Below, piece by piece: positions 4,746 through 28,925 of a stretch of 47,723 nucleotides of DNA. The stretch comes from Candidatus Heimdallarchaeota archaeon (GTDB lineage Archaea; Asgardarchaeota; Wukongarchaeia; Wukongarchaeales; JBHIFL01): positions 1 through 47,723 of the forward strand of contig JBHIFL010000027.1 in NCBI GenBank assembly GCA_046761065.1, written 5' to 3'. The first letter of the stretch is position 1, and every line of letters starts with the position of its first letter. The notes beneath the pieces are model-generated. The model saw only the letters and a program-made list of their open reading frames with translations. It had not been told where the DNA came from and searched no databases. Made by a program: the position numbers and the translations under genes.

Positions 4746-7208
4746 GTGTACAGCGTGAGCACCGAACTTGAACAGATTTCTATTGAAGACGAAATGAAGC
4801 ATAGTTACATTGACTATGCGATGAGTGTGATCGTAGGGCGTGCGTTACCGGATGCTCGAGACGGACTCAAGCCAGTTCATCGTCGAATCTTATATAGCAT
4901 GTGGGAAGAAGGCAACCGAGCACGAAGCAGGTTTTTGAAATGTGGGAAGACAGTTGGAAATGTGCTTGGCAATTACCATCCCCATGGGGATACTGCTATC
5001 TACGAAGCTATGGCTCGGATGGCTCAGGAGTTCTCTCTCCGGTATCCACTTATTGAGGGACAGGGTAATTTCGGTTCGATTGATGGAGATCCAGCTGGCG
5101 CGTACCGCTACACAGAGGCTCGAATGAATCGAATTAGCGAACTTTTAATGAAGGATATTGATAAAGAAACCGTCCCATTTCGCCCCACTTACGACGGGAG
5201 GTTACAAGAACCTGTGGTGTTACCTGCCGTCCTTCCAAATTTATTATTAAACGGGGCCTCAGGAATTGCTGTTGGGATGGCTACGAATATCCCCTCTCAT
5301 AATTTGAATGAGTTGGTTGACGCACTTACTGCATTTATCGATGATCCTGAGATCACACTTGATGAATTAATGCAATATATCCCGGGACCAGATTTTCCAA
5401 CAGGTGGGATCATCTATGGAGTTCGGGGAATACGACAGGCTTATGAAACTGGAAGCGGACGACTCATCCTTCGCGGAAAAGCAACAATCAAACGCAACAA
5501 GAGTGAAAAAGCACAGATCATCATAACAGAGATCCCGTATCAGGTTAAAACGGAAGATCTCATCAAACAGATCGGGACAGTCAAGGGAGCGAGTAATGTA
5601 ATTAATGAAGCAGATCAGGATAATTTAGTACGAATTCGAGTCGATATCGATCTGAACACCCCTCCTGAGATTGTCTTGAATCGCTTATTGCGTAGAACCT
5701 CACTTCAAATTACATTTGGTTGGAAAATGTTAGCGTTGGTGGATGATCAACCACGGATCTTAAATTTAAAAAATGTTTTCGAGGTATTCTTATCGCATAG
5801 GGTGGGTGTGACGAAGGCTGCTCTCACATCCGACCTAAATCAAATGAAGCGACGTGTTCATGTTCTCGAAGGTCTTTTATTGGCACTAGACCATATTGAT
5901 GAAGTCATCAAAATTATTCGCACCTCTGAAACCAATAAAGCTATCAGAACCACCTTACTCAAAACATTCCATCTAAGTGATGAACAAACCACAGCTATTT
6001 TGAATATTCGACTTGCTCAACTTGCCCGTCTAGAAAAAGCTAAAGTGGCTGACGAGTTTAAGGAACTTAATGAAAAGATATCGTGGTCCCAATCGGTACT
6101 TGCGGATGACCGCAAGGTGTATACGCTAATTAAAGAGGAGCTTTATGCCTTAAAAAAAGATTTTGGGGATGTTCGTCGTACTGAACTCATTCCCGAATTC
6201 CATGAGGCCTATGAAGCCTTGGAAGAAAAATCCCCCCGTGATTTCATCACAGAAACCCAAATTGTGATTGCACGAACCCTGAAAGGATATATCATCAGCA
6301 TGCCACTAGATGTATATAGGCGGCAACATCGTGGTGGCAAAGGGATCTATGCAATGGACATCCGGACCGATGATATGGCGGTCGATTTGATGGTGACCTC
6401 GAACTTTGATACTATTCTCTTTTTCACCGAATCCGGGAAAGTTCATGCCCTCCCAGGTTATGAACTTCCACAACGTAAGCGAGCTTCTCGAGGAATTGCT
6501 TTAGAGCAAGTTCTCGCAGGAATCGAAAAGGATGGAAAAGTGACCTCGGTGATTCCTATTTCGGAGTTTCGAGAAGATTGTTTCTTATTTCAAGTTACTG
6601 AAGCAGGATGGGTCAAAAAAACGCCCCTTATGGAATATGCACGAATAATGAAGGGGGGAAAACGTTCAATATTGCTTACAGCCGAAGATAAGCTTCGATG
6701 CGCCTTAATAACGCACGGTAATAATCAACTACTCTTGGCGTCAGAAAATGGAAAATCCATTCGCTTTCGCGAAACTGATGTCCGTCCTACAGGTCGTGCG
6801 TCTCGTGGGGTGCGGGGAATCAAACTCGAGCCAGGGGATCGTGTGGTCGATGCTGTTCTAGTACAAGACGACATGACACTTTTGACTGTGACAGAACAAG
6901 GTTATGGAAAACGGACCCCCTTCCCCAAGTATCGTGTGCAGCGACGCGGGGGAAAGGGGTTGATTAATATTAAAAGAACTGAGAAAAACGGAAATGTAGT
7001 CGCCTGCTTACGCGTCGATCAGGATGATGAAATCATGGCAATCAGCGCAAAAGGTAAGATTATTCGCATCCCGATAAAGTCAATCCGTTCTTATGTCGGG
7101 CGTGTAACACAAGGAGTACGAGTTATGAGCCTTGGTGAAGATGATTGTGTGGTTGGGGTAGCCAAAATTAAGGTTCCAAACGAGAAGAAGCCCCCTGAAA
7201 GCTCTTAG
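4746..7208 (+). CDS. gyrA: DNA gyrase subunit A (start may be GTG 4755)
   Basis: [34 protein letters not shown], catalytic RYTE, C-terminal beta-pinwheel repeats with GyrA-box-like QHRGGKG/QRRGGKG. Confidence 0.97.
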
Positions 7209-15079: not shown

Positions 15080-15238
15080 CTATTGACCATGACTCAGTTG
15101 AACCCAAAGTTCCCCTTTAAGTAGATCACGAATGGCGTTACGGATCGCTTCGCTGCGATTAGGATATCTTCTTTGCCATACTAATTCATCTAACCCGTTA
15201 ATGAATTCTTGAGGCAGATGAACGGTTACCAACTTCAA
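15080..15238 (-). CDS. ribbon-helix-helix (CopG/Arc) regulator, CdrS-like
   Basis: (M)KLVTVHLPQEFINGLDELVWQRRYPNRSEAIRNAIRDLL; TTG at 15238 after a G-rich SD. Confidence 0.85.
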   Translation of the reverse strand: MKLVTVHLPQEFINGLDELVWQRRYPNRSEAIRNAIRDLLKGELWVQLSHGQ

Positions 15239-15801
15239 CGTATCAACCCCCACACAATTCATATTGTACAGATATCGACCCTAATCTATGATAAAAGAAT
15301 ATAGTCGGCTTATTATAAGAGTTCGTAATCAAAACATGCCATGATCGTATTAGCTTATTGGAATTTCTCCATATGATTAGTAAAATTCTTCGAGAGATTA
15401 AAAAATTTCTCTGGATAATCTCCGGGTATTCCAGACGAAATAGAGGGGTGTTACCAAAATGATATCTGAAGGGGTTACACTCATATAGCCGAATACCTAC
15501 TTTTCATTAAGATATTGAAAAACAGCTGCAATAAGTGGTATCATTAGATAGTTTTTTTTTTCTTGGTTTTATCCTTAAACAAGTTTTCTTTCAAGGGGAA
15601 AAGTATAACAGAACTAACATCTTTTTGCTACATCCTTATCATGAGTGACAAAGATAGACGTATCAGTGATGGATTTGGATTGACCGTGGATTCTGATCGC
15701 GATAACATTGATTACACACCAGTACCCACGCCCCATCAGCCCTTTTAAGTGGGCTTGGGACAATTGCTGCGGCTCTACAGACCTGGCATTCTCCCGTTGA
15801 A

Positions 15802-18144
15802 TCACTCCAATGTAACCATTCCCTTATTTGGAAGCGGAGACTCCCCAAGTCTCAAGAAATGTTCTAGACTTCGGATTCCTTCTAATTCTCTGCGGAGTTG
15901 GGCGGGTGAGATGAAGGGTTGTAAAAGTTTGGGTAACCAAGTCATCGTCCGGTTCTCCCAGATATGCTTATAACCATCTCGCGTGATGGGTTTCTTAGGA
16001 ACTCCATGCTCAACCGGCCACACTTGGTTAGACGAAAGGTAGACGAATTTAATTTTCTTGTGTGGGAGGTAGCGCCCCATCCTCCGCAGAATTCGCGCAG
16101 CTCGGGCTGGCGCAAAGGCTTTCTTATACTGCGAGAGGGGTTTGGCCAACCGGACTGTAATCACGAGATCCTCATCGTACTTTCCAGCAAATAAGTTCGT
16201 TTTGACTTGATAAAGGTATTTGGTGATCTCTTCGAGGGGTATCCGCCCATGGATCATGTGAAAGACGGTTTTCTGCAAATTACGCACGAATGGACAACGA
16301 TCTGTCCGATTGAGCTCGTGGCCCACGCTATGCAGTTCCGGTGGGGTGAAGCCTTTCCCATCTTTCCAAATGCGCGCGCCGGAGTAGCGCTTTTTGACAT
16401 CCACTAAGAGATAGGTGGCGTAGAGCGCTTCGAGCTTAAGTTTGAGAAGGCTGGCTCGCTCTTCTGACAAGCCTTCCGCATGAAGTTTCCGCTGAATCAT
16501 GTGGGTAATCTCTTTTGCAAGCTTTTTTGCTTCCCTTACACATTGTTGTGGCGACCACATGGCTGGAAGACTAACCATCACACTATCTACGTCACCATAA
16601 ATCACGTCAATGTGGGTCGAGTTCTGGAGGTAGTCTACGGCCAGCTGGAGCAGTTCATGCGCCCGCGCGACGATTAGCTCGGCCACTTCGCGGCGAAAGA
16701 AGCGGTTTCGGCGGGAAGCAATCACGCCCCAGAGCATTAAGATAGGAGGTTTGAGCGCCTTTCGAAAGTGTTCGTACTGCTCCCATTCGTCGGTCGTTTG
16801 CGCGGCATTCCGCAACTGTTTGAACTCTTCCAGCTTCCGAGTATATTCTTCGAGAATTTCCACGAAGATCCCTGGCTCATACGGGAATCGGTCGAACATT
16901 TGCGTGTTCGGATTCCATTGTTCGGGAGAAATCCCCCAGATCTGCATAATACAATTGAACAGGCTAAAATAATCCAGGATTGCCACATTACGATAGAAGC
17001 CCTGCTTTGGGTCGAGGGTGATAGGTCCTTCGATGGGAGGCTCCCGTTGTTTGATCCGACTACGCCAAAGACAGCGGCGGGGCCGGGTCAATGCTTTGTC
17101 GATGGCGCGTTTGGTCACCATGCGTGACGGATGGTCTAAGACTTCCACTGGGACCCCGAGTAGCTCCGCCAGCAGGAGCTCCATTTCAATGATTTTCAAT
17201 TTGCAATTGGCGGTGTACATGAGGTGGACCTCCTCGGCACAATAGGAGCTGAGTTGCTCCGGTGCTTGCCGATAGGTCTCATAATATTCTTGGACAAAGT
17301 TCGACTTCGTCTGGCCTACCTCACGTGCAAATTCTTCTAGCTCCAATAAATTTCCGCGCGCCATCGAGGGCTTGTGTTTCATCACAATATTTTGCATGGA
17401 GAGCCATGTCCACTCTTTCAAATCAAATGGGATGCCGAGGTGTTTACAGCGTCGTGCTAAGAACATTGGTTCAAAGTTTGTCCATGAAATCGGAAAGTCA
17501 TAGGTTTTCAAGAAGCATATCAGCTGCTTGAGGAGTTGCCGCTCGTTCGGGAACTCACTGTTGTCCCGGAATTCGAGGGCTTCACCGGTTTGGCCATCAA
17601 TCGCCCGTACCATTAAAATACGGGTTTGTTTATAATCCAACATGTTGAAGCCATCATCAATGACCATCGACACAAACAGCCACCGGTATGGAGGGAGGTC
17701 GGCAAGCGTCACCGGATCAGTGACCGGGAGGACCGCATTTTTAGACTCTGGGATCTCAATTATCAATCCATAACCCTTGTCATTCATGTGGCGTAGTTCG
17801 AAGGGCCAATCCATTTCGTAACAATCAGTGTAACCCTCTGCCACAAGAGTTTGATAGAGTTGGAGAAGTTCTTTCGGGTAATTGGTTTCTACTCGAAGAA
17901 TCGCCTTGTCATTATCCACGAAATATGCGGTATCCCTCGGAACGGGTATCATGTGCACGGGGAAACCCAGCTCGAGGGCTTCGATGAGAGGGCGATATTC
18001 TACAGGTACAAACCCATAGGGGCGGAGCTGGGCCGGGATATTGGTAAGATGCTGTTTCCCAGCTTTCGTCCGGAGGACATAGTTCATGTACAAGTGATTG
18101 TTGTAGGAAGAAGGATAGAGATTCACGATTCGGCCGATGACCAT
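15802..18144 (-). CDS. divergent family B DNA polymerase with degenerate exonuclease motifs
   Basis: LRPYGFV and YEMDWPFELR N-terminal domain; motif A DYFSLF, motif B ALKPPILMLWG, motif C YGDVDS, KKRYSG, GHELNRTD; C-terminal PIP-like RSLEHF. Confidence 0.9.
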   Translation of the reverse strand: MVIGRIVNLYPSSYNNHLYMNYVLRTKAGKQHLTNIPAQLRPYGFVPVEYRPLIEALELGFPVHMIPVPRDTAYFVDNDKAILRVETNYPKELLQLYQTLVAEGYTDCYEMDWPFELRHMNDKGYGLIIEIPESKNAVLPVTDPVTLADLPPYRWLFVSMVIDDGFNMLDYKQTRILMVRAIDGQTGEALEFRDNSEFPNERQLLKQLICFLKTYDFPISWTNFEPMFLARRCKHLGIPFDLKEWTWLSMQNIVMKHKPSMARGNLLELEEFAREVGQTKSNFVQEYYETYRQAPEQLSSYCAEEVHLMYTANCKLKIIEMELLLAELLGVPVEVLDHPSRMVTKRAIDKALTRPRRCLWRSRIKQREPPIEGPITLDPKQGFYRNVAILDYFSLFNCIMQIWGISPEQWNPNTQMFDRFPYEPGIFVEILEEYTRKLEEFKQLRNAAQTTDEWEQYEHFRKALKPPILMLWGVIASRRNRFFRREVAELIVARAHELLQLAVDYLQNSTHIDVIYGDVDSVMVSLPAMWSPQQCVREAKKLAKEITHMIQRKLHAEGLSEERASLLKLKLEALYATYLLVDVKKRYSGARIWKDGKGFTPPELHSVGHELNRTDRCPFVRNLQKTVFHMIHGRIPLEEITKYLYQVKTNLFAGKYDEDLVITVRLAKPLSQYKKAFAPARAARILRRMGRYLPHKKIKFVYLSSNQVWPVEHGVPKKPITRDGYKHIWENRTMTWLPKLLQPFISPAQLRRELEGIRSLEHFLRLGESPLPNKGMVTLE

Positions 18145-18319
18145 TGAGGGGTAGTCTCTCCTTGATGCTGTAAGCTATTTCCTAAGAGAAGATTAACTAG
18201 ATGGAATCAACTTTTCAAGACACACGCCCCCTCCCCTGATGTGAACCCCTCCAATCTTCCAGATCCAAGGCGAACGGCGCATGATTCGGCCGCTTCTTGG
18301 TTTTATTCTGAAATGAGGT

Positions 18320-18370
18320 GAGAATTAATTATTTTAATCGACATTAGACGAGGGTTAATTATTTTAGTCG
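18320..18370. repeat. imperfect direct repeat TTAATTATTTTA(A/G)TCG x2, 30-bp period, upstream of the PolB gene
   Basis: copies at 18325-18340 and 18355-18370, 15/16 identical, each preceded by GAG plus 2 nt. Confidence 0.7.
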
Positions 18371-18539
18371 GGTGTTCTCTTGCATAATCTGCAGAGCTCT
18401 TCTTTGTTGGATCGTGTTAATTAAAACAGCCCCGAGAAGACTCCAATGCTGGGTTCTACCCCAATGTTATAGCCCACTCAAGCTTAGGAACCAAAAAACT
18501 GGTTCAACTTAAGAACTGAATACTTAAGGTAAGACAACA

Positions 18540-25199: not shown

Positions 25200-28100
25200 A
25201 TGTATTCCCGCTTTGTGAAATCCTTTTTTCTTATTATTCTATTTATGACTCCTTTACTCTCCTCCTCCTCATTTGATATCCTGTATAGCATAAACGGTGT
25301 ATCTTCCAAAAATATTGATTCTTTGACAGATGATGAACTGTTACATGCATTTGAAAAAGCACGACAGGAGATTCCGAGTTATAATCCTGTGTTTCTGCAA
25401 TTTAATGACCAACAGGAATTGGAGCGAGGAGTAACGATTCTTAAAACAATGAACGTAATAATTCTTCATAAGTATATCCTTCTCCCACTTGTTCTTATAG
25501 ATGGTTTAACTCCAGAAAAGATGAAGATCATTGCTAAGCGTTGTTCTATAGTTAATGTTCATCCTAATAAAATCCGTACGCTCATTAAACCATCTGAAGA
25601 TTCAATTTCCCATTTCCAGGACGATAATTCTTTGAATTCTTCACGTCTTCCAGAGATAATAGGAACCACCAAATTACTTGAGGAGGGTCATGATGGAACA
25701 GGAATTATCATTGCTATTTTAGATACGGGTGTAGACGCCACCCATCCGGATCTTACTAATAAAGTTGTACATGAAACGAGCTTTGTTAAGCACAATTTAG
25801 GATATCTCGAAGATGAAGATCCCAAGGATACCTTTGGGCATGGAACTGCCGTCGCCGGTACTGCAGCGGGCACGGGAAAAGCTTCTAATGGACTCTATAC
25901 TGGAATTGCACCCGGTGCCAATTTCTGGAATGTAAAAGTGCTGAACTCTTTAGGGGTGGGTCGAGATGCTGGGATTATCGCAGGAATTGAATATGCAACG
26001 TTCGGTCCAGATAACCAAAGGGATCCCAGTGATCCTGATATCATTAACTTAAGTTTAGGTGGTCCAGGTGGGCCTGATGACTTGAGTAGTCTTGCTGTCG
26101 ATGCCGCCGTTACCCAAGGTGTTGTTGTAACGGCAAGTGCTGGAAATGAAGGACCCTTCTACTCGTCTGTGGGATCCCCCGGGGCAGCTCGTCTGGCGAT
26201 TACAGTTGGAGCAACCACATTGAATGGTGAACTGACTAAGTTTTCCAGTCGGGGCTTCAATTTAGGCAGATACCCGGATCCTGACATTGTGGCTCCTGGT
26301 CTGGATATCATCGCTCCTCTCAGTGCAACCTCCTTTCTTGGATTATCCAAACAAATCCTTTATCCTCCAAAGTATATTAGCGGAAAAGATGGTAACTATG
26401 TTCCTCTTTCAGGAACCAGCCTTTCATCTCCCATTGTTGCAGGTGCTTGTGCACTTTTACTTGAAGCATTTCCCCGTCTCAAAGAGTTAGGGCCTATTGC
26501 TTTACGAATCGTCCTCATGCGTACTGCTAACTCCACCCACCCCTCATTTCAGGCCAATCCAAACATCGCCGGTGCAGGGATGCTTGACATCGCAAAGGCT
26601 GAAACCTATCTTGAAAACCTCGATGATACTCCTACACAAGATCTGGTACTGGTTTTTCCTAAACTCCTACTCTCTGAACCGGCTTTAGTCGCATTTCCTG
26701 GAAATTCATTGGAAGAAAAAATCCTCCTACTAACTGTAGCCCCAGCAACGTTTACATTTGAAACAGAAGGCCCAATTAAACCATTTGTCGAGTTAGTGAA
26801 TACTTCTCTCTACATTGAACAGGGTGATGTTCTTCCCATCAATCTTACAGTCTCCTTGCCCCTAGACATAAATCCCTCAATTTTTGAACAGATTAATGGG
26901 TTCTTAAACGTTCTGATGGATGGAAAGTTAATCGCGCACCTTCCTTTTCAGCCAATTGATGTCCGTTTTCCTAAGTTACGCGTCTATTTCGACAATTTTC
27001 ATAATAAAGGCCCTGAAGATACCCCTCTAAGAAACTTCTTTGCAGTCACAAAGCTCCTGAGAAACAAATCTGTTGATATCGTCGTCCATGATTCCTTTAT
27101 CAGCTATGAAACTTTAGCATCTTTTGACATCCTTCTGCTACCTGATGTAGAACTCATGTTTTCTCAGAAGGAAATTCAAGCAATTTATCAATTTCTTGAG
27201 GCAGGAGGAAATCTAATTCTCTTAGGTGCCGAAAAAGACTCAATGGCGGTCAAGGCTATCAATGAGCTTTTAGATCCATTTGGCATCACATTAACTGATA
27301 CCATCGAAAATGTTACCGATCAAGGCGTATGGAAACACCATGAAGCAAACCTAAACGTAACAACTTTTTCTCTCCACCCGCTCACCCAAGGTATTGATTT
27401 ACTTACTTGGAAGGCTGGTATCAGTTTAACAATTGACACGGAAGTCTCAAACACCCGAGACCTTGCAACAATTACCCTCGAAGAGAATGAATACGCGGTT
27501 ATGGCTGTCCATGAAGCCAACCCTGTGCATAATGGGAGTGTGATAGTACTTGGGACCGAATATCTTTTTTATGATGATCTTCTCAACGAAACGGATAGTA
27601 CCAATCGTCAACTAGCCGAAAATTTGTTTGATTGGCTAACTCCAGATAGTGACCTTCTTCCTCGAATTATGATTAATAGGACACGCGCCGCTCCCATGGA
27701 TACTATTAGTGTAGTGACCTACATCATAACTTCAGAAACCTCTGACCTAGCGGCTGTAGAGGATTTGAATCTAATCGTGACATTCCCGAATGGAACTGAG
27801 ACCCTCCTCACAAATGAGCTTGCTCAACCTCCCTATGAAATCATCCCAGGGATCTATCACTATACATATACGCTACCAACAGATCTCAGCGGCTACCTAA
27901 CCTTCAAAATAAACTCCTCCCAATTTGAAGAGAATCCATCCACCACAGTCTTAGTTTCGGAGACAGAACCAAAAATAGTTTCAACGGAGATGGTTGTAGA
28001 GACTGGTGGACGGGAAATTGTCGAACCTAACTGGACAATCTTCTTCGATGAACCAAAATTGGATCGATACGATGACAAAATTACCATTGAAGCCACTATC

Positions 28101-28925
28101 CAACATGCAGATCAGGTCACACTCTATCTAACACTCCTCGGAGACCAGTTAAGTGACCTTTCCAAGGAAACAACAGCTAATTACGCGTTTCCTATGGTCG
28201 TTGGCTCGAATAGCCAACACTGGAGATATGAATGGCACCCAAACTCTTCAACTCCAGCGGGGATGTATAGCTACTTTGTCTTTCCCACAACTAAAGATGG
28301 TACTTTCTCCCTGACTCCATACAATTCTACTGGGACATTTATTCTACTTGATAGTGAACCAATTATTGATGAAACAAACACCTTTGTTGCTAAGCACTCC
28401 ATTCAGGAACTTGAAGACCTTCTAGATCGCGAACGAATTTCTGTATTGTCAAGTCCCACTGTTAACATTAAAATAACCGGCGAAGACCTCGAAGATACCC
28501 TTAATGAGATGGAAGCTTGGGTTCTTGTTTTAGAATTCAGCGTATTTATTATTGAAGAATATGTGTTAGCGGTATCTTCAATCCCCTATAATACCCAAAC
28601 AAAGATGTTTGAGATGAATTTCACCCTTCCGTCCAATTTACTCAGTACCCCATATGGGCAACTGCCAGAAGATACCATATTGGTGTTTTACCTCCTCCTT
28701 CGTGATTCGGATGGGAATTTTGACTATGCAATAGCTCCAACTGCCCTACAATTACCTACTGAACTGTTATTTAGACAAACAATTGATTCCATTATCGCGT
28801 TGGGATTGATTCTGATTGGTAGCATTTTCTTCCTCGAGCCGATAATTGGAACGATCGTCGTGTTAGTTGCTTCGATCTTGATCGCTTGGCAGCTCGCAAA
28901 ACGATCGCTCAGGCAGTTGCAATAG
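25200..28925 (+). CDS. membrane-anchored S8 subtilase with GATase-like accessory domain (site-1-protease-like architecture)
   Basis: signal peptide; LDTGVD, GHGTAVAG, AGNEG, SGTSLSSP catalytic motifs; RVYFDNFH...FDILLLPDVE...EIQAI.QFLEAGGNL domain; two C-terminal hydrophobic helices. Confidence 0.9.
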   Translation: MYSRFVKSFFLIILFMTPLLSSSSFDILYSINGVSSKNIDSLTDDELLHAFEKARQEIPSYNPVFLQFNDQQELERGVTILKTMNVIILHKYILLPLVLIDGLTPEKMKIIAKRCSIVNVHPNKIRTLIKPSEDSISHFQDDNSLNSSRLPEIIGTTKLLEEGHDGTGIIIAILDTGVDATHPDLTNKVVHETSFVKHNLGYLEDEDPKDTFGHGTAVAGTAAGTGKASNGLYTGIAPGANFWNVKVLNSLGVGRDAGIIAGIEYATFGPDNQRDPSDPDIINLSLGGPGGPDDLSSLAVDAAVTQGVVVTASAGNEGPFYSSVGSPGAARLAITVGATTLNGELTKFSSRGFNLGRYPDPDIVAPGLDIIAPLSATSFLGLSKQILYPPKYISGKDGNYVPLSGTSLSSPIVAGACALLLEAFPRLKELGPIALRIVLMRTANSTHPSFQANPNIAGAGMLDIAKAETYLENLDDTPTQDLVLVFPKLLLSEPALVAFPGNSLEEKILLLTVAPATFTFETEGPIKPFVELVNTSLYIEQGDVLPINLTVSLPLDINPSIFEQINGFLNVLMDGKLIAHLPFQPIDVRFPKLRVYFDNFHNKGPEDTPLRNFFAVTKLLRNKSVDIVVHDSFISYETLASFDILLLPDVELMFSQKEIQAIYQFLEAGGNLILLGAEKDSMAVKAINELLDPFGITLTDTIENVTDQGVWKHHEANLNVTTFSLHPLTQGIDLLTWKAGISLTIDTEVSNTRDLATITLEENEYAVMAVHEANPVHNGSVIVLGTEYLFYDDLLNETDSTNRQLAENLFDWLTPDSDLLPRIMINRTRAAPMDTISVVTYIITSETSDLAAVEDLNLIVTFPNGTETLLTNELAQPPYEIIPGIYHYTYTLPTDLSGYLTFKINSSQFEENPSTTVLVSETEPKIVSTEMVVETGGREIVEPNWTIFFDEPKLDRYDDKITIEATIQHADQVTLYLTLLGDQLSDLSKETTANYAFPMVVGSNSQHWRYEWHPNSSTPAGMYSYFVFPTTKDGTFSLTPYNSTGTFILLDSEPIIDETNTFVAKHSIQELEDLLDRERISVLSSPTVNIKITGEDLEDTLNEMEAWVLVLEFSVFIIEEYVLAVSSIPYNTQTKMFEMNFTLPSNLLSTPYGQLPEDTILVFYLLLRDSDGNFDYAIAPTALQLPTELLFRQTIDSIIALGLILIGSIFFLEPIIGTIVVLVASILIAWQLAKRSLRQLQ

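Follow-up and report, generated by a model that had tools for sequence, protein, structure and literature searches.

Introduction

The PolII-like clade of family B DNA polymerases (PolBs) comprises the E. coli Pol II/G1 group, the archaeal and haloviral B5 group, and the Magro and T4-like groups (Kazlauskas et al. 2020, PMC7544198). Another archaeal PolB, PolB2, is represented by Sulfolobus Dpo2, a damage-inducible translesion polymerase of the B family (PMC8764526; PMC7544198). Among Asgard viruses, the PolB of Nidhogg is related to those of haloarchaeal myoviruses and that of Ratatoskr to Heimdallarchaeota sequences (Rambo et al., bioRxiv 10.1101/2021.07.29.454249). Here we analyse P0001, a PolB gene located at positions 15802–18144 (reverse strand) of a 47,723-nt stretch of DNA from a Candidatus Heimdallarchaeota archaeon (contig JBHIFL010000027.1, hereafter the window). 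The gene groups with virus-type PolBs, the conserved acidic residues of its exonuclease site have been replaced and the catalytic residues of its polymerase site are kept; P0001 is probably a captured viral enzyme that serves as an accessory, error-prone polymerase.

The family to which P0001 belongs resembles each of these systems in part. It shares a side of the PolB tree with Salmonella Pol II and with haloarchaeal tailed-virus PolBs, and of the GWN signature of ExoII it keeps the conserved Trp but neither the Gly nor the Asn, the full GWN being found in many of the surrounding viral relatives. As in B5, a virus-type PolB resides in archaeal chromosomes. The family differs from the PolII-like groups represented in our trees, Salmonella Pol II and the haloviruses, in lying within a separate, unnamed metagenomic assemblage (SLYN..Q in motif A, K..LLSxYG in motif B) outside the halovirus/B5 branch. 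Moreover, B5, Pol II and T4-like enzymes proofread, whereas the subclade containing P0001 is exonuclease-dead (exo-dead). PolB2 offers the best functional analogy, as an accessory PolB beside replicative PolBs with degenerate exonuclease motifs and under selection. The initial annotation of the window had drawn this analogy, which holds for function but not for the defining features of PolB2: that group belongs to a different clade, has no ExoIII, a single Asp plus a His in motif C and a D(K/R) motif, whereas P0001 has an ExoIII segment and both motif C Asp residues. Pol alpha and Pol zeta have likewise lost proofreading residues while the fold of the exonuclease domain is intact and the polymerase site active, but they belong to unrelated (Delta-like) clades, carry C-terminal Zn modules, work with accessory subunits and have no virus-type Pol II-like descent. 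A role analogous to that of PolB2, Pol zeta or Pol alpha, without membership in those groups, seems most likely for P0001. The Asgard viruses Nidhogg, Ratatoskr and Fenrir present the same kind of virus–host PolB link, a likeness drawn from their description only, and the viral PolB reported to group with Heimdallarchaeota may touch the very link studied here.

Specialised proofreading-dead PolBs (Pol alpha, Pol zeta, archaeal PolB2) have a central place in how eukaryotes and archaea replicate DNA and tolerate damage. To our knowledge, the origin of such enzymes is known only from ancient events. In the present small family both states survive: two members have an intact exonuclease site (exo-intact) and follow a DNA methyltransferase gene within compact modules, and five chromosomal members are exo-dead. 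The list of residues that separate the two states is short, with nine specific to the exo-dead subclade, and therefore allows a direct test of the changes by which a replicase is turned into an accessory polymerase. The locus would also document the transfer of a core replication enzyme from viruses to Asgard archaea, which are close relatives of eukaryotes, and is thus relevant to the debated question of what viruses have contributed to replication machinery. Because the clade is rare and has very few members, its general importance is limited unless the enzyme turns out to have unusual chemistry or a role in defence.

Results and Discussion

P0001 is a third, additional PolB of its genome

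P0001 is a single uninterrupted open reading frame (ORF) of 780 codons. The initial annotation had described a full-length PolB with a set of quoted motifs at this place, and we recovered the ORF and all of its motifs at coordinates that were checked by translation. The 780-residue product matches PF00136 (Pfam DNA_pol_B) with an E-value of 1.2e-25 and a score of 90.7 bits (cut-off 23); its matches to several NCBIfam PolB models all stay far under the respective cut-offs. Together with the predicted fold and the substitution pattern described below, these matches identify an intact family B DNA polymerase gene, the third PolB of its genome.

The other two PolBs of the 4.4-Mb assembly are of cellular type. 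The gene on contig 33 is a PolB1, matching Sulfolobus Dpo1 (1s5j) at 2e-211, and that on contig 75 is a PolB3, matching at 1e-208 the Pyrobaculum calidifontis structure 5mdn, which is named PolB3 in the literature (PMC7544198). The best sequence match of P0001 in the PDB is also 5mdn, at 3e-24, followed by 1s5j at 1e-6, and orthology with PolB1 or PolB3 was not found. The genome further encodes the DP2 subunit of PolD, a Y-family polymerase and one PCNA, the last on contig 17 (locus L059, 1492–2250). Since PolB1, PolB3, PolD and a Y-family polymerase are all present, P0001 is an extra polymerase.

The P0001 family groups with virus-type PolBs

Among 5.8 billion protein clusters, only five showed real similarity to P0001 (91, 78, 67, 48 and 41% identity), the next being 25% identical; one further member, P0165, was added from a cluster look-up. 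The resulting family has seven sequences, all from metagenomes. Five of them, including P0001, are exo-dead, and the two deepest, P0005 (48% identical to P0001) and P0006 (41%), are exo-intact. No orthologue of P0001 was found in 40 related genomes, and a gene of this type occurs in one of 400 Asgard species genomes (85 genera). When the species-representative genome collection and IMG/VR were scanned with patterns from the family alignment, the former gave no relative and the latter no family member; in IMG/VR, a four-sequence alignment recovered only distant viral PolBs of at most 27% identity. A description of this PolB clade was not found in the literature searched. Exo-intact P0005 comes from sample SRR14699978, exo-intact P0006 from SRR26074186 and exo-dead P0004 from SRR14699982; as the run accessions of P0005 and P0004 are neighbouring, similar samples may harbour both the captured form and the exo-intact sequence closest to it.

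For phylogenetic analysis, a profile search of 1.84 billion representatives yielded thousands of distant PolBs, 70 of which were combined with the family, with Asgard cellular PolBs from 30 genomes and with references, namely Salmonella Pol II, three haloarchaeal tailed-virus PolBs and one Leptospira phage PolB. Trees were built with FastTree and with IQ-TREE (LG+C20 PMSF), and both methods agree on the following points. The seven family members form a clade with a support of 100, and the five exo-dead sequences form a subclade within it, also with a support of 100. The family is nested in a large metagenomic assemblage (support 97–99) with P0012 as its nearest neighbour. This assemblage shares its side of the tree with Pol II and the haloviruses and is split, with a support of 95–98, from all Asgard cellular PolBs, including the two of the same genome. 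An approximately unbiased (AU) test rejected a group composed of the family and the Asgard cellular PolBs (delta lnL 77.6, p 5.8e-6), in a test of 27 rows under LG+G4 for which the group was named after the tree had been seen. The haloviruses, together with P0043 and P0075, form a clade of their own (support 99–100) outside the assemblage that holds the family, so that the family takes a position within the PolII-like clade (Kazlauskas 2020) but not within B5, as judged from a reference set that comprised only Salmonella Pol II and three haloviruses. L047 and the Leptospira phage LE1 PolB, which carry the PolB2/G2 hallmarks, were placed on the B1–3 side of the tree. By its place in these trees, P0001 is neither PolB1, PolB2 nor PolB3 of Asgard cells.

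The gene contexts of the relatives are of virus type. P0012 lies in a co-directional row made up of a primase-like gene, the PolB itself, a DNA methyltransferase, a RecA-like ATPase, a PD-(D/E)XK nuclease, an ERCC4 nuclease and a phosphoesterase. P0020 and P0017 are found among dozens of small, tightly packed ORFs that include ERCC4, methyltransferases, RNA ligase, helicase, PCNA, Rad51 and Cas4, and the surroundings of all three genes consist of dense small ORFs in long co-directional blocks. Within the family, P0005 is preceded by PCNA, RNase H and an MT-A70 methyltransferase, followed by a 56-codon ORF that overlaps the P0005 start, and P0006 by a Dam methyltransferase and an overlapping ORF of 58 codons. 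No capsid genes are in view on the metagenomic contigs of these relatives, and 'virus' could therefore also stand for another replicating element. The term 'acquired', used in the initial annotation, is borne out by the grouping of P0001 with PolBs of virus modules rather than with Asgard cellular PolB1, PolB2 or PolB3 and by its presence in a single one of the 400 Asgard species genomes.

The proofreading site is dismantled and the catalytic polymerase residues are kept

Motif states were read from an alignment of the seven family members with 61 viral-type relatives, and invariance was counted over these 68 sequences; all of the motifs lie on the reverse strand. In the ExoI region (LFVSMVIDD, 17653–17679), the catalytic D and E, which are 100% conserved in the 61 relatives and kept in P0005 and P0006, are replaced by S159 and V161, and these positions read S/A and V/I in all five members of the subclade. 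The ExoII region (ISWTNFEPMFL, 17458–17490) has kept its W, carries a two-residue deletion and has E225 in place of the catalytic D. Whereas the relatives read GWNxxxFD, P0005 and P0006 have WT(L/N)YD and the subclade FE or YE; the deletion is common to the whole family, whose acidic residue at this place is D in both exo-intact members and E in the subclade. W221 is invariant in the family, in which ExoII reads (S/H)W(T/S)x, while many neighbouring viral relatives have GWN. At 17398–17400, S249 replaces an Asp of the exonuclease domain that is 98% conserved in the relatives and retained in P0005 and P0006; the subclade has S or A. ExoIII (YCAEE, 17230–17244) keeps the Tyr with the catalytic D changed to E305, where P0005 and P0006 read YCxxD and thus keep YxxxD, and the subclade has E or A. 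In short, five acidic residues have been lost together in the five-sequence subclade (D159S/A, E161V/I, D225E, D249S/A and D305E/A), and P0001 has none of the ExoI DxE, ExoII D and ExoIII YxxxD signatures of a proofreading-proficient PolB. Degenerate proofreading motifs had been noted before; the comparison with P0005 and P0006, which keep DxE, D and YxxxD, shows the degeneration to be a lineage-specific loss.

The polymerase site presents a different picture. Motif A (DYFSLFNC, 16951–16974) retains the catalytic D391, which is invariant in the 68 sequences, and its SLYN..Q form, as opposed to SLYPS, is standard across the viral assemblage. Motif B (KPPILMLWG, 16726–16752) retains Lys465 and Gly473, both invariant. 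Motif C (YGDVDS, 16582–16599) has both catalytic Asp residues (D520 invariant, D518 nearly so), and the KxY motif (KKRY, 16384–16395) keeps K584, K585 and Y587, each at least 90% conserved. P0001 therefore carries the catalytic carboxylates of motifs A and C, the motif B lysine and the KxY motif of family B (D391, D518, D520, K465 and K584-K585-x-Y587). Motif B had been described as rewritten in P0001. The canonical Asn is indeed gone, but the description is overstated, because motif B without this Asn (K..LLSxYG) is already standard across the viral assemblage. Specific to the family is KPPIL(V/M)(N/L)WG, with Trp for Tyr, and this form is present in the exo-intact members as well.

Changes particular to the subclade affect four residues of the nucleotide pocket (Y396F, R438L/M, G476A and T519V). 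The steric-gate Tyr of motif A, 95% conserved in the relatives, is Phe in all five members, and the Thr of motif C, conserved to the same degree, is Val in all five. A conserved Arg of the finger helix (95% in the viral relatives, and also present in the PolB1 and PolB3 of this genome and in Salmonella Pol II) is L438 in P0001 (16831–16833) and L or M in the subclade, and the last glycine of motif B has become Ala. From the literature on RB69, KOD and 9N, we take these four positions to contact the sugar, the triphosphate and the minor groove of the nascent pair.

Fold, composition and selection

The AlphaFold2 model of P0001 has a predicted local distance difference test score (pLDDT) of 92.1 and a predicted TM score (pTM) of 0.87, with disorder confined to residues 769–780 (pLDDT <50). 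The model has the five-domain family B fold, and Foldseek matched it over the full length to 9N, KOD and E. coli Pol II with TM scores of 0.74–0.76.

Four chromosomal copies are available as DNA: the window (P0001) and the metagenomic loci L015 (P0002), L013 (P0003) and L012 (P0165). Pairwise ratios of nonsynonymous to synonymous substitution (dN/dS) among them are 0.09–0.13, with dS of 0.28–0.34 for the close pairs and 1.25–1.5 for the distant pairs. The ratios are alike in the N-terminal, exonuclease and polymerase parts, indicating that the dead exonuclease domain is still constrained. A pseudogene, or decay at the level of the strain, was considered and rejected on the basis of the intact frame and a dN/dS of about 0.1. 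Homologs with intact motifs, which the initial annotation would have taken as a sign of simple decay in this strain, do exist in P0005 and P0006; strain decay does not follow from them, as five sequences share the loss at this low dN/dS.

The gene is the GC-richest patch of the window, as had been suspected from sampled lines, with a GC content of 0.50–0.505 in sliding windows against 0.34–0.47 elsewhere. The genome as a whole has 0.42, compared with about 0.50 for the gene. Among 2009 long ORFs of the genome, the gene is at the 92nd percentile for GC (0.498) and at the 95th for GC at third codon positions (0.576), and is thus in the tail of the distribution but not an extreme outlier. The three other chromosomal copies have gene and flank values of 0.52 and 0.41, 0.557 and 0.44, and 0.555 and 0.39, so that all four exceed their own flanks by 10–16 GC points despite deep divergence. 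The viral-type relatives are less GC-rich (P0006, 0.467; P0012, 0.437).

A C-terminal PIP-like box

Near its C-terminus the polymerase carries a PCNA-interacting protein (PIP)-like box, IRSLEHFL (15853–15876, reverse strand), with a predicted helix at residues 760–766. The box, which is the ancestral C-terminus of the family, aligns with the terminal GQTGLEAFL of P0006, which has the canonical QxxLxxFL, and with the terminal KSLEEFF of P0005, whose contig encodes PCNA. The P0001 version is without the Gln of Qxx[LIM]xx[FY][FYL] and is followed by a lineage-specific 16-residue tail and the stop codon (15802–15852), which includes the disordered residues 769–780 and lies past the end of homology to the L012 and L013 copies.

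The earlier proposal that the polymerase binds PCNA is plausible, as a prediction from the alignment of the box and from a modelled complex. A predicted complex of P0001 with the host PCNA scored 0.54, against 0.14 for the best control, which the test grades as weak support; runs agreed in at least 66% of contacts and the pLDDT of the partner was at least 46. The mark of this test was reached by 51 of 78 solved complexes and by 2 of 108 mismatched pairs, and scores of 0.60 or less included only 5 of the 78 solved complexes along with all 4 passing mismatches (of 180). Because PolB–PCNA complexes have already been solved (e.g. 3a2f), the pass may reflect likeness to known structures.

Probable capture of a viral replicase as an accessory polymerase

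The explanation that we favour, with moderate confidence for the reading as a whole, is that the PolB lineage of P0001 derives from archaeal virus replicases and was captured as a single gene by an organism ancestral to this Heimdall-type Asgard archaeon and to a small number of relatives. After capture, the gene would have gained its own conserved leader (see below), its proofreading site would then have been dismantled by replacement of the five acidic residues, and its deoxynucleoside triphosphate (dNTP) pocket would have been altered (Y396F, R438L, G476A and T519V), the catalytic carboxylates, the motif B lysine, KxY and the five-domain fold being kept. Such an enzyme has most likely retained DNA synthesis, without proofreading and with altered nucleotide selection. 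The PIP-like box probably recruits it to the sliding clamp of the host, and its cellular role may be that of a repair or damage-tolerance polymerase, accessory to PolB1, PolB3, PolD and the Y-family enzyme. The ancestry, the motif states, the purifying selection, the fold and the changing chromosomal contexts are shown by the present analysis; catalytic activity, low fidelity, PCNA binding and the role in the cell are what we infer from the sequence.

Several points weigh against this explanation. With the finger Arg, the motif C Thr and the steric-gate hydroxyl lost, P0001 could be a strongly impaired and not merely inaccurate polymerase. Since the genome already encodes a Y-family polymerase, it is not evident why a further enzyme for damage tolerance would be needed. 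The viral origin is drawn from metagenomic contig contexts with no capsid genes in view and from trees without Magro and T4-like references. Finally, copies that are 90% identical in unrelated contexts, one of them a defence-type island, fit a mobile or defence-linked gene no less well than a housekeeping repair enzyme.

Chromosomal loci and alternative explanations

The window is colinear with L015 across all of the 4.7 kb available (86.6% identity), but with L012 and L013 it shares only positions 18335–15850. L012 and L013 are in turn 90.5% identical across 2.9 kb only, with unrelated flanks, and the gene thus occurs in three unrelated chromosomal contexts. Those of the window and of L013 are metabolic or housekeeping in character: the L013 copy adjoins a Ras/Arf GTPase and a radical SAM gene, and some of its flanking genes have homologues of 42–77% identity in this genome. 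In L012 (positions 1–22346 of a 75-kb metagenomic contig), P0165 lies in a defence-type island with a GIY-YIG protein, AAA_15/21, SLFN_AlbA_2, an HNH-repeat protein, a Piwi-domain (Argonaute-like) protein followed by two helicases, and a UvrD-type helicase; within 10 kb on either side of P0165, no homologues of this genome's genes were found.

The shared unit extends from the gene into a leader. Homology of the window to L012 and L013 ends at 15845–15853, right after the PIP codons, and each copy continues into a different short tail. At the other end, a conserved non-coding leader or promoter region (18145–18380, reverse strand) aligns in all four chromosomal copies (L015, 2320–2555; L012 and L013, 9765–10000). 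About 230 nt upstream of the start codon are kept in this way, although synonymous sites of the distant pairs are saturated. The four-copy alignment contains no conserved ORF in the leader, the L012 version reaching a stop after 5 codons, and the leader is absent upstream of the viral-type P0006, whose gene overlaps a small ORF.

These borders raise the possibility that the unit of leader and polymerase (~2.5–2.9 kb) is still selfish, being carried by, or left over from, a mobile element or provirus that moves between Asgard genomes, so that the polymerase would serve the replication or spread of this element and not the host. We regard this as unlikely, though as the most credible of the alternatives. 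It would account for the sharp limits of the similarity among the window, L012 and L013, for the rarity of the gene in Asgard genomes, for the unfamiliar surroundings of the L012 copy and for the GC excess over flanks in all copies, as expected of a repeatedly transferred gene. It would also account for a second copy of the last 200 nt of the gene in L013 (13735–13935, 83% identical), which lies 1.4 kb downstream of the intact gene and stops at the identical point, just after the PIP codons; this partial copy may have been left behind by an earlier copy or by recombination. Against a selfish unit, no integrase, transposase, tRNA target or other element genes adjoin the gene in the window, L013 or L015, and a search for terminal inverted repeats or att-like ends found no inverted repeats flanking it. 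The colinearity of the window and L015 shows that the locus is stable between those two, and a lone replicative polymerase without proofreading would be an unlikely replication module for an element.

The island in L012 suggests a further alternative, antiviral defence, in which the captured polymerase would act as a clamp-binding decoy or as an error-prone competitor of a related viral replicase. Descent from viral replicases, the company of P0165 (AAA_15/21, SLFN_AlbA_2, the Piwi-domain protein, helicases and the HNH-repeat protein), the patchy distribution with changing flanks and the retention of the PIP-like box all agree with such a role. However, only one of the three contexts resembles a defence island, there is no conserved partner gene, a comparison of this genome with four related viral contigs gave no short exact matches of the CRISPR-spacer type, and the literature searched contains no defence system built on a family B polymerase. 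We therefore consider antiviral defence improbable. In a version that we hold to be just as improbable, leader and proofreading-dead polymerase form a mobile Asgard cassette that is kept as a weapon against the viruses from which it came, a possible mechanism being that a clamp-binding, error-prone or non-productive polymerase poisons viruses with a related replicase; if true, this would be a defence gene of a new kind, built from a viral replicase.

The initial annotation had also allowed for a non-catalytic scaffold. Such a protein would have the shape of a polymerase and bind DNA or PCNA, in the manner of the inactive C-terminal half of Pol epsilon. The joint change of Y396F, R438L, G476A and T519V, a motif B without Asn and the equal constraint on all domains, the dead exonuclease domain included, would suit a scaffold. 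Nevertheless, all five subclade members keep the motif C Asp pair, the motif A Asp, the motif B Lys and KKRY unchanged at a dS of up to 1.5, and inactivated PolBs known to us lose exactly these catalytic residues. Because the catalytic residues are invariant, a scaffold is unlikely. Degenerate exonuclease motifs that recall PolB2 and the best PDB match to PolB3 (5mdn) would suggest that P0001 is an ordinary PolB2 of archaea or a paralogue of the host PolB3 that has decayed. This reading is barely credible, given a far stronger match of the host's true PolB3 to the same structure, PolB2 anchors (L047 and LeptoLE1) that read HGIVDC and HAITDS with a single Asp plus His, show a gap at ExoIII and fall on the B1–3 side, the YCAEE segment and both YGDVDS Asp residues of P0001, and the AU test; motif C, ExoIII, the trees and this test together exclude PolB2 membership. 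An accessory polymerase captured from viruses remains the explanation that we prefer.

Further features of the locus

Within the leader, a repeat search revealed two tandem 30-nt repeats (18310–18369, reverse strand) with A/T-rich TAAAATAAT cores that are kept in all four copies and constitute a candidate promoter or operator. We also considered the leader as a structured RNA, and found little support: RNAalifold gave 7 compensated pairs from only 4 sequences, the folding energy of the single sequence is ordinary (z -0.19), and Rfam returned no match for the leader.

The two copies of a 20-nt direct repeat, alike at 18 of 20 positions, lie on either side of the gene at 15560–15579 and 18294–18313 of the window, with a spacing of 2734 nt. 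L015 keeps the repeat (2392–2405 and 5157–5170), but L012 and L013 do not have it downstream of the gene, and its positions do not match the homology borders. In a search for an empty site, two order-level relatives had no recognisable orthologue of the flanking methyltransferase, and a distant homologue of PNP was present in one of them only.

Two neighbouring genes of the window deserve mention. A 60-codon ORF of the ribbon-helix-helix type (CopG family; RHH_1, E 1.6e-8) is located at 15080–15262 on the reverse strand, 540 nt downstream of the polymerase; it is 91% conserved in L015 and lies outside the unit shared with L012 and L013. Farther away, at 25200–28925 on the forward strand, the window encodes a subtilase (Peptidase_S8) of 1241 residues, the middle part of which matches a DUF4350 / IFT52 GIFT-like domain (E 1e-9 to 4e-11).

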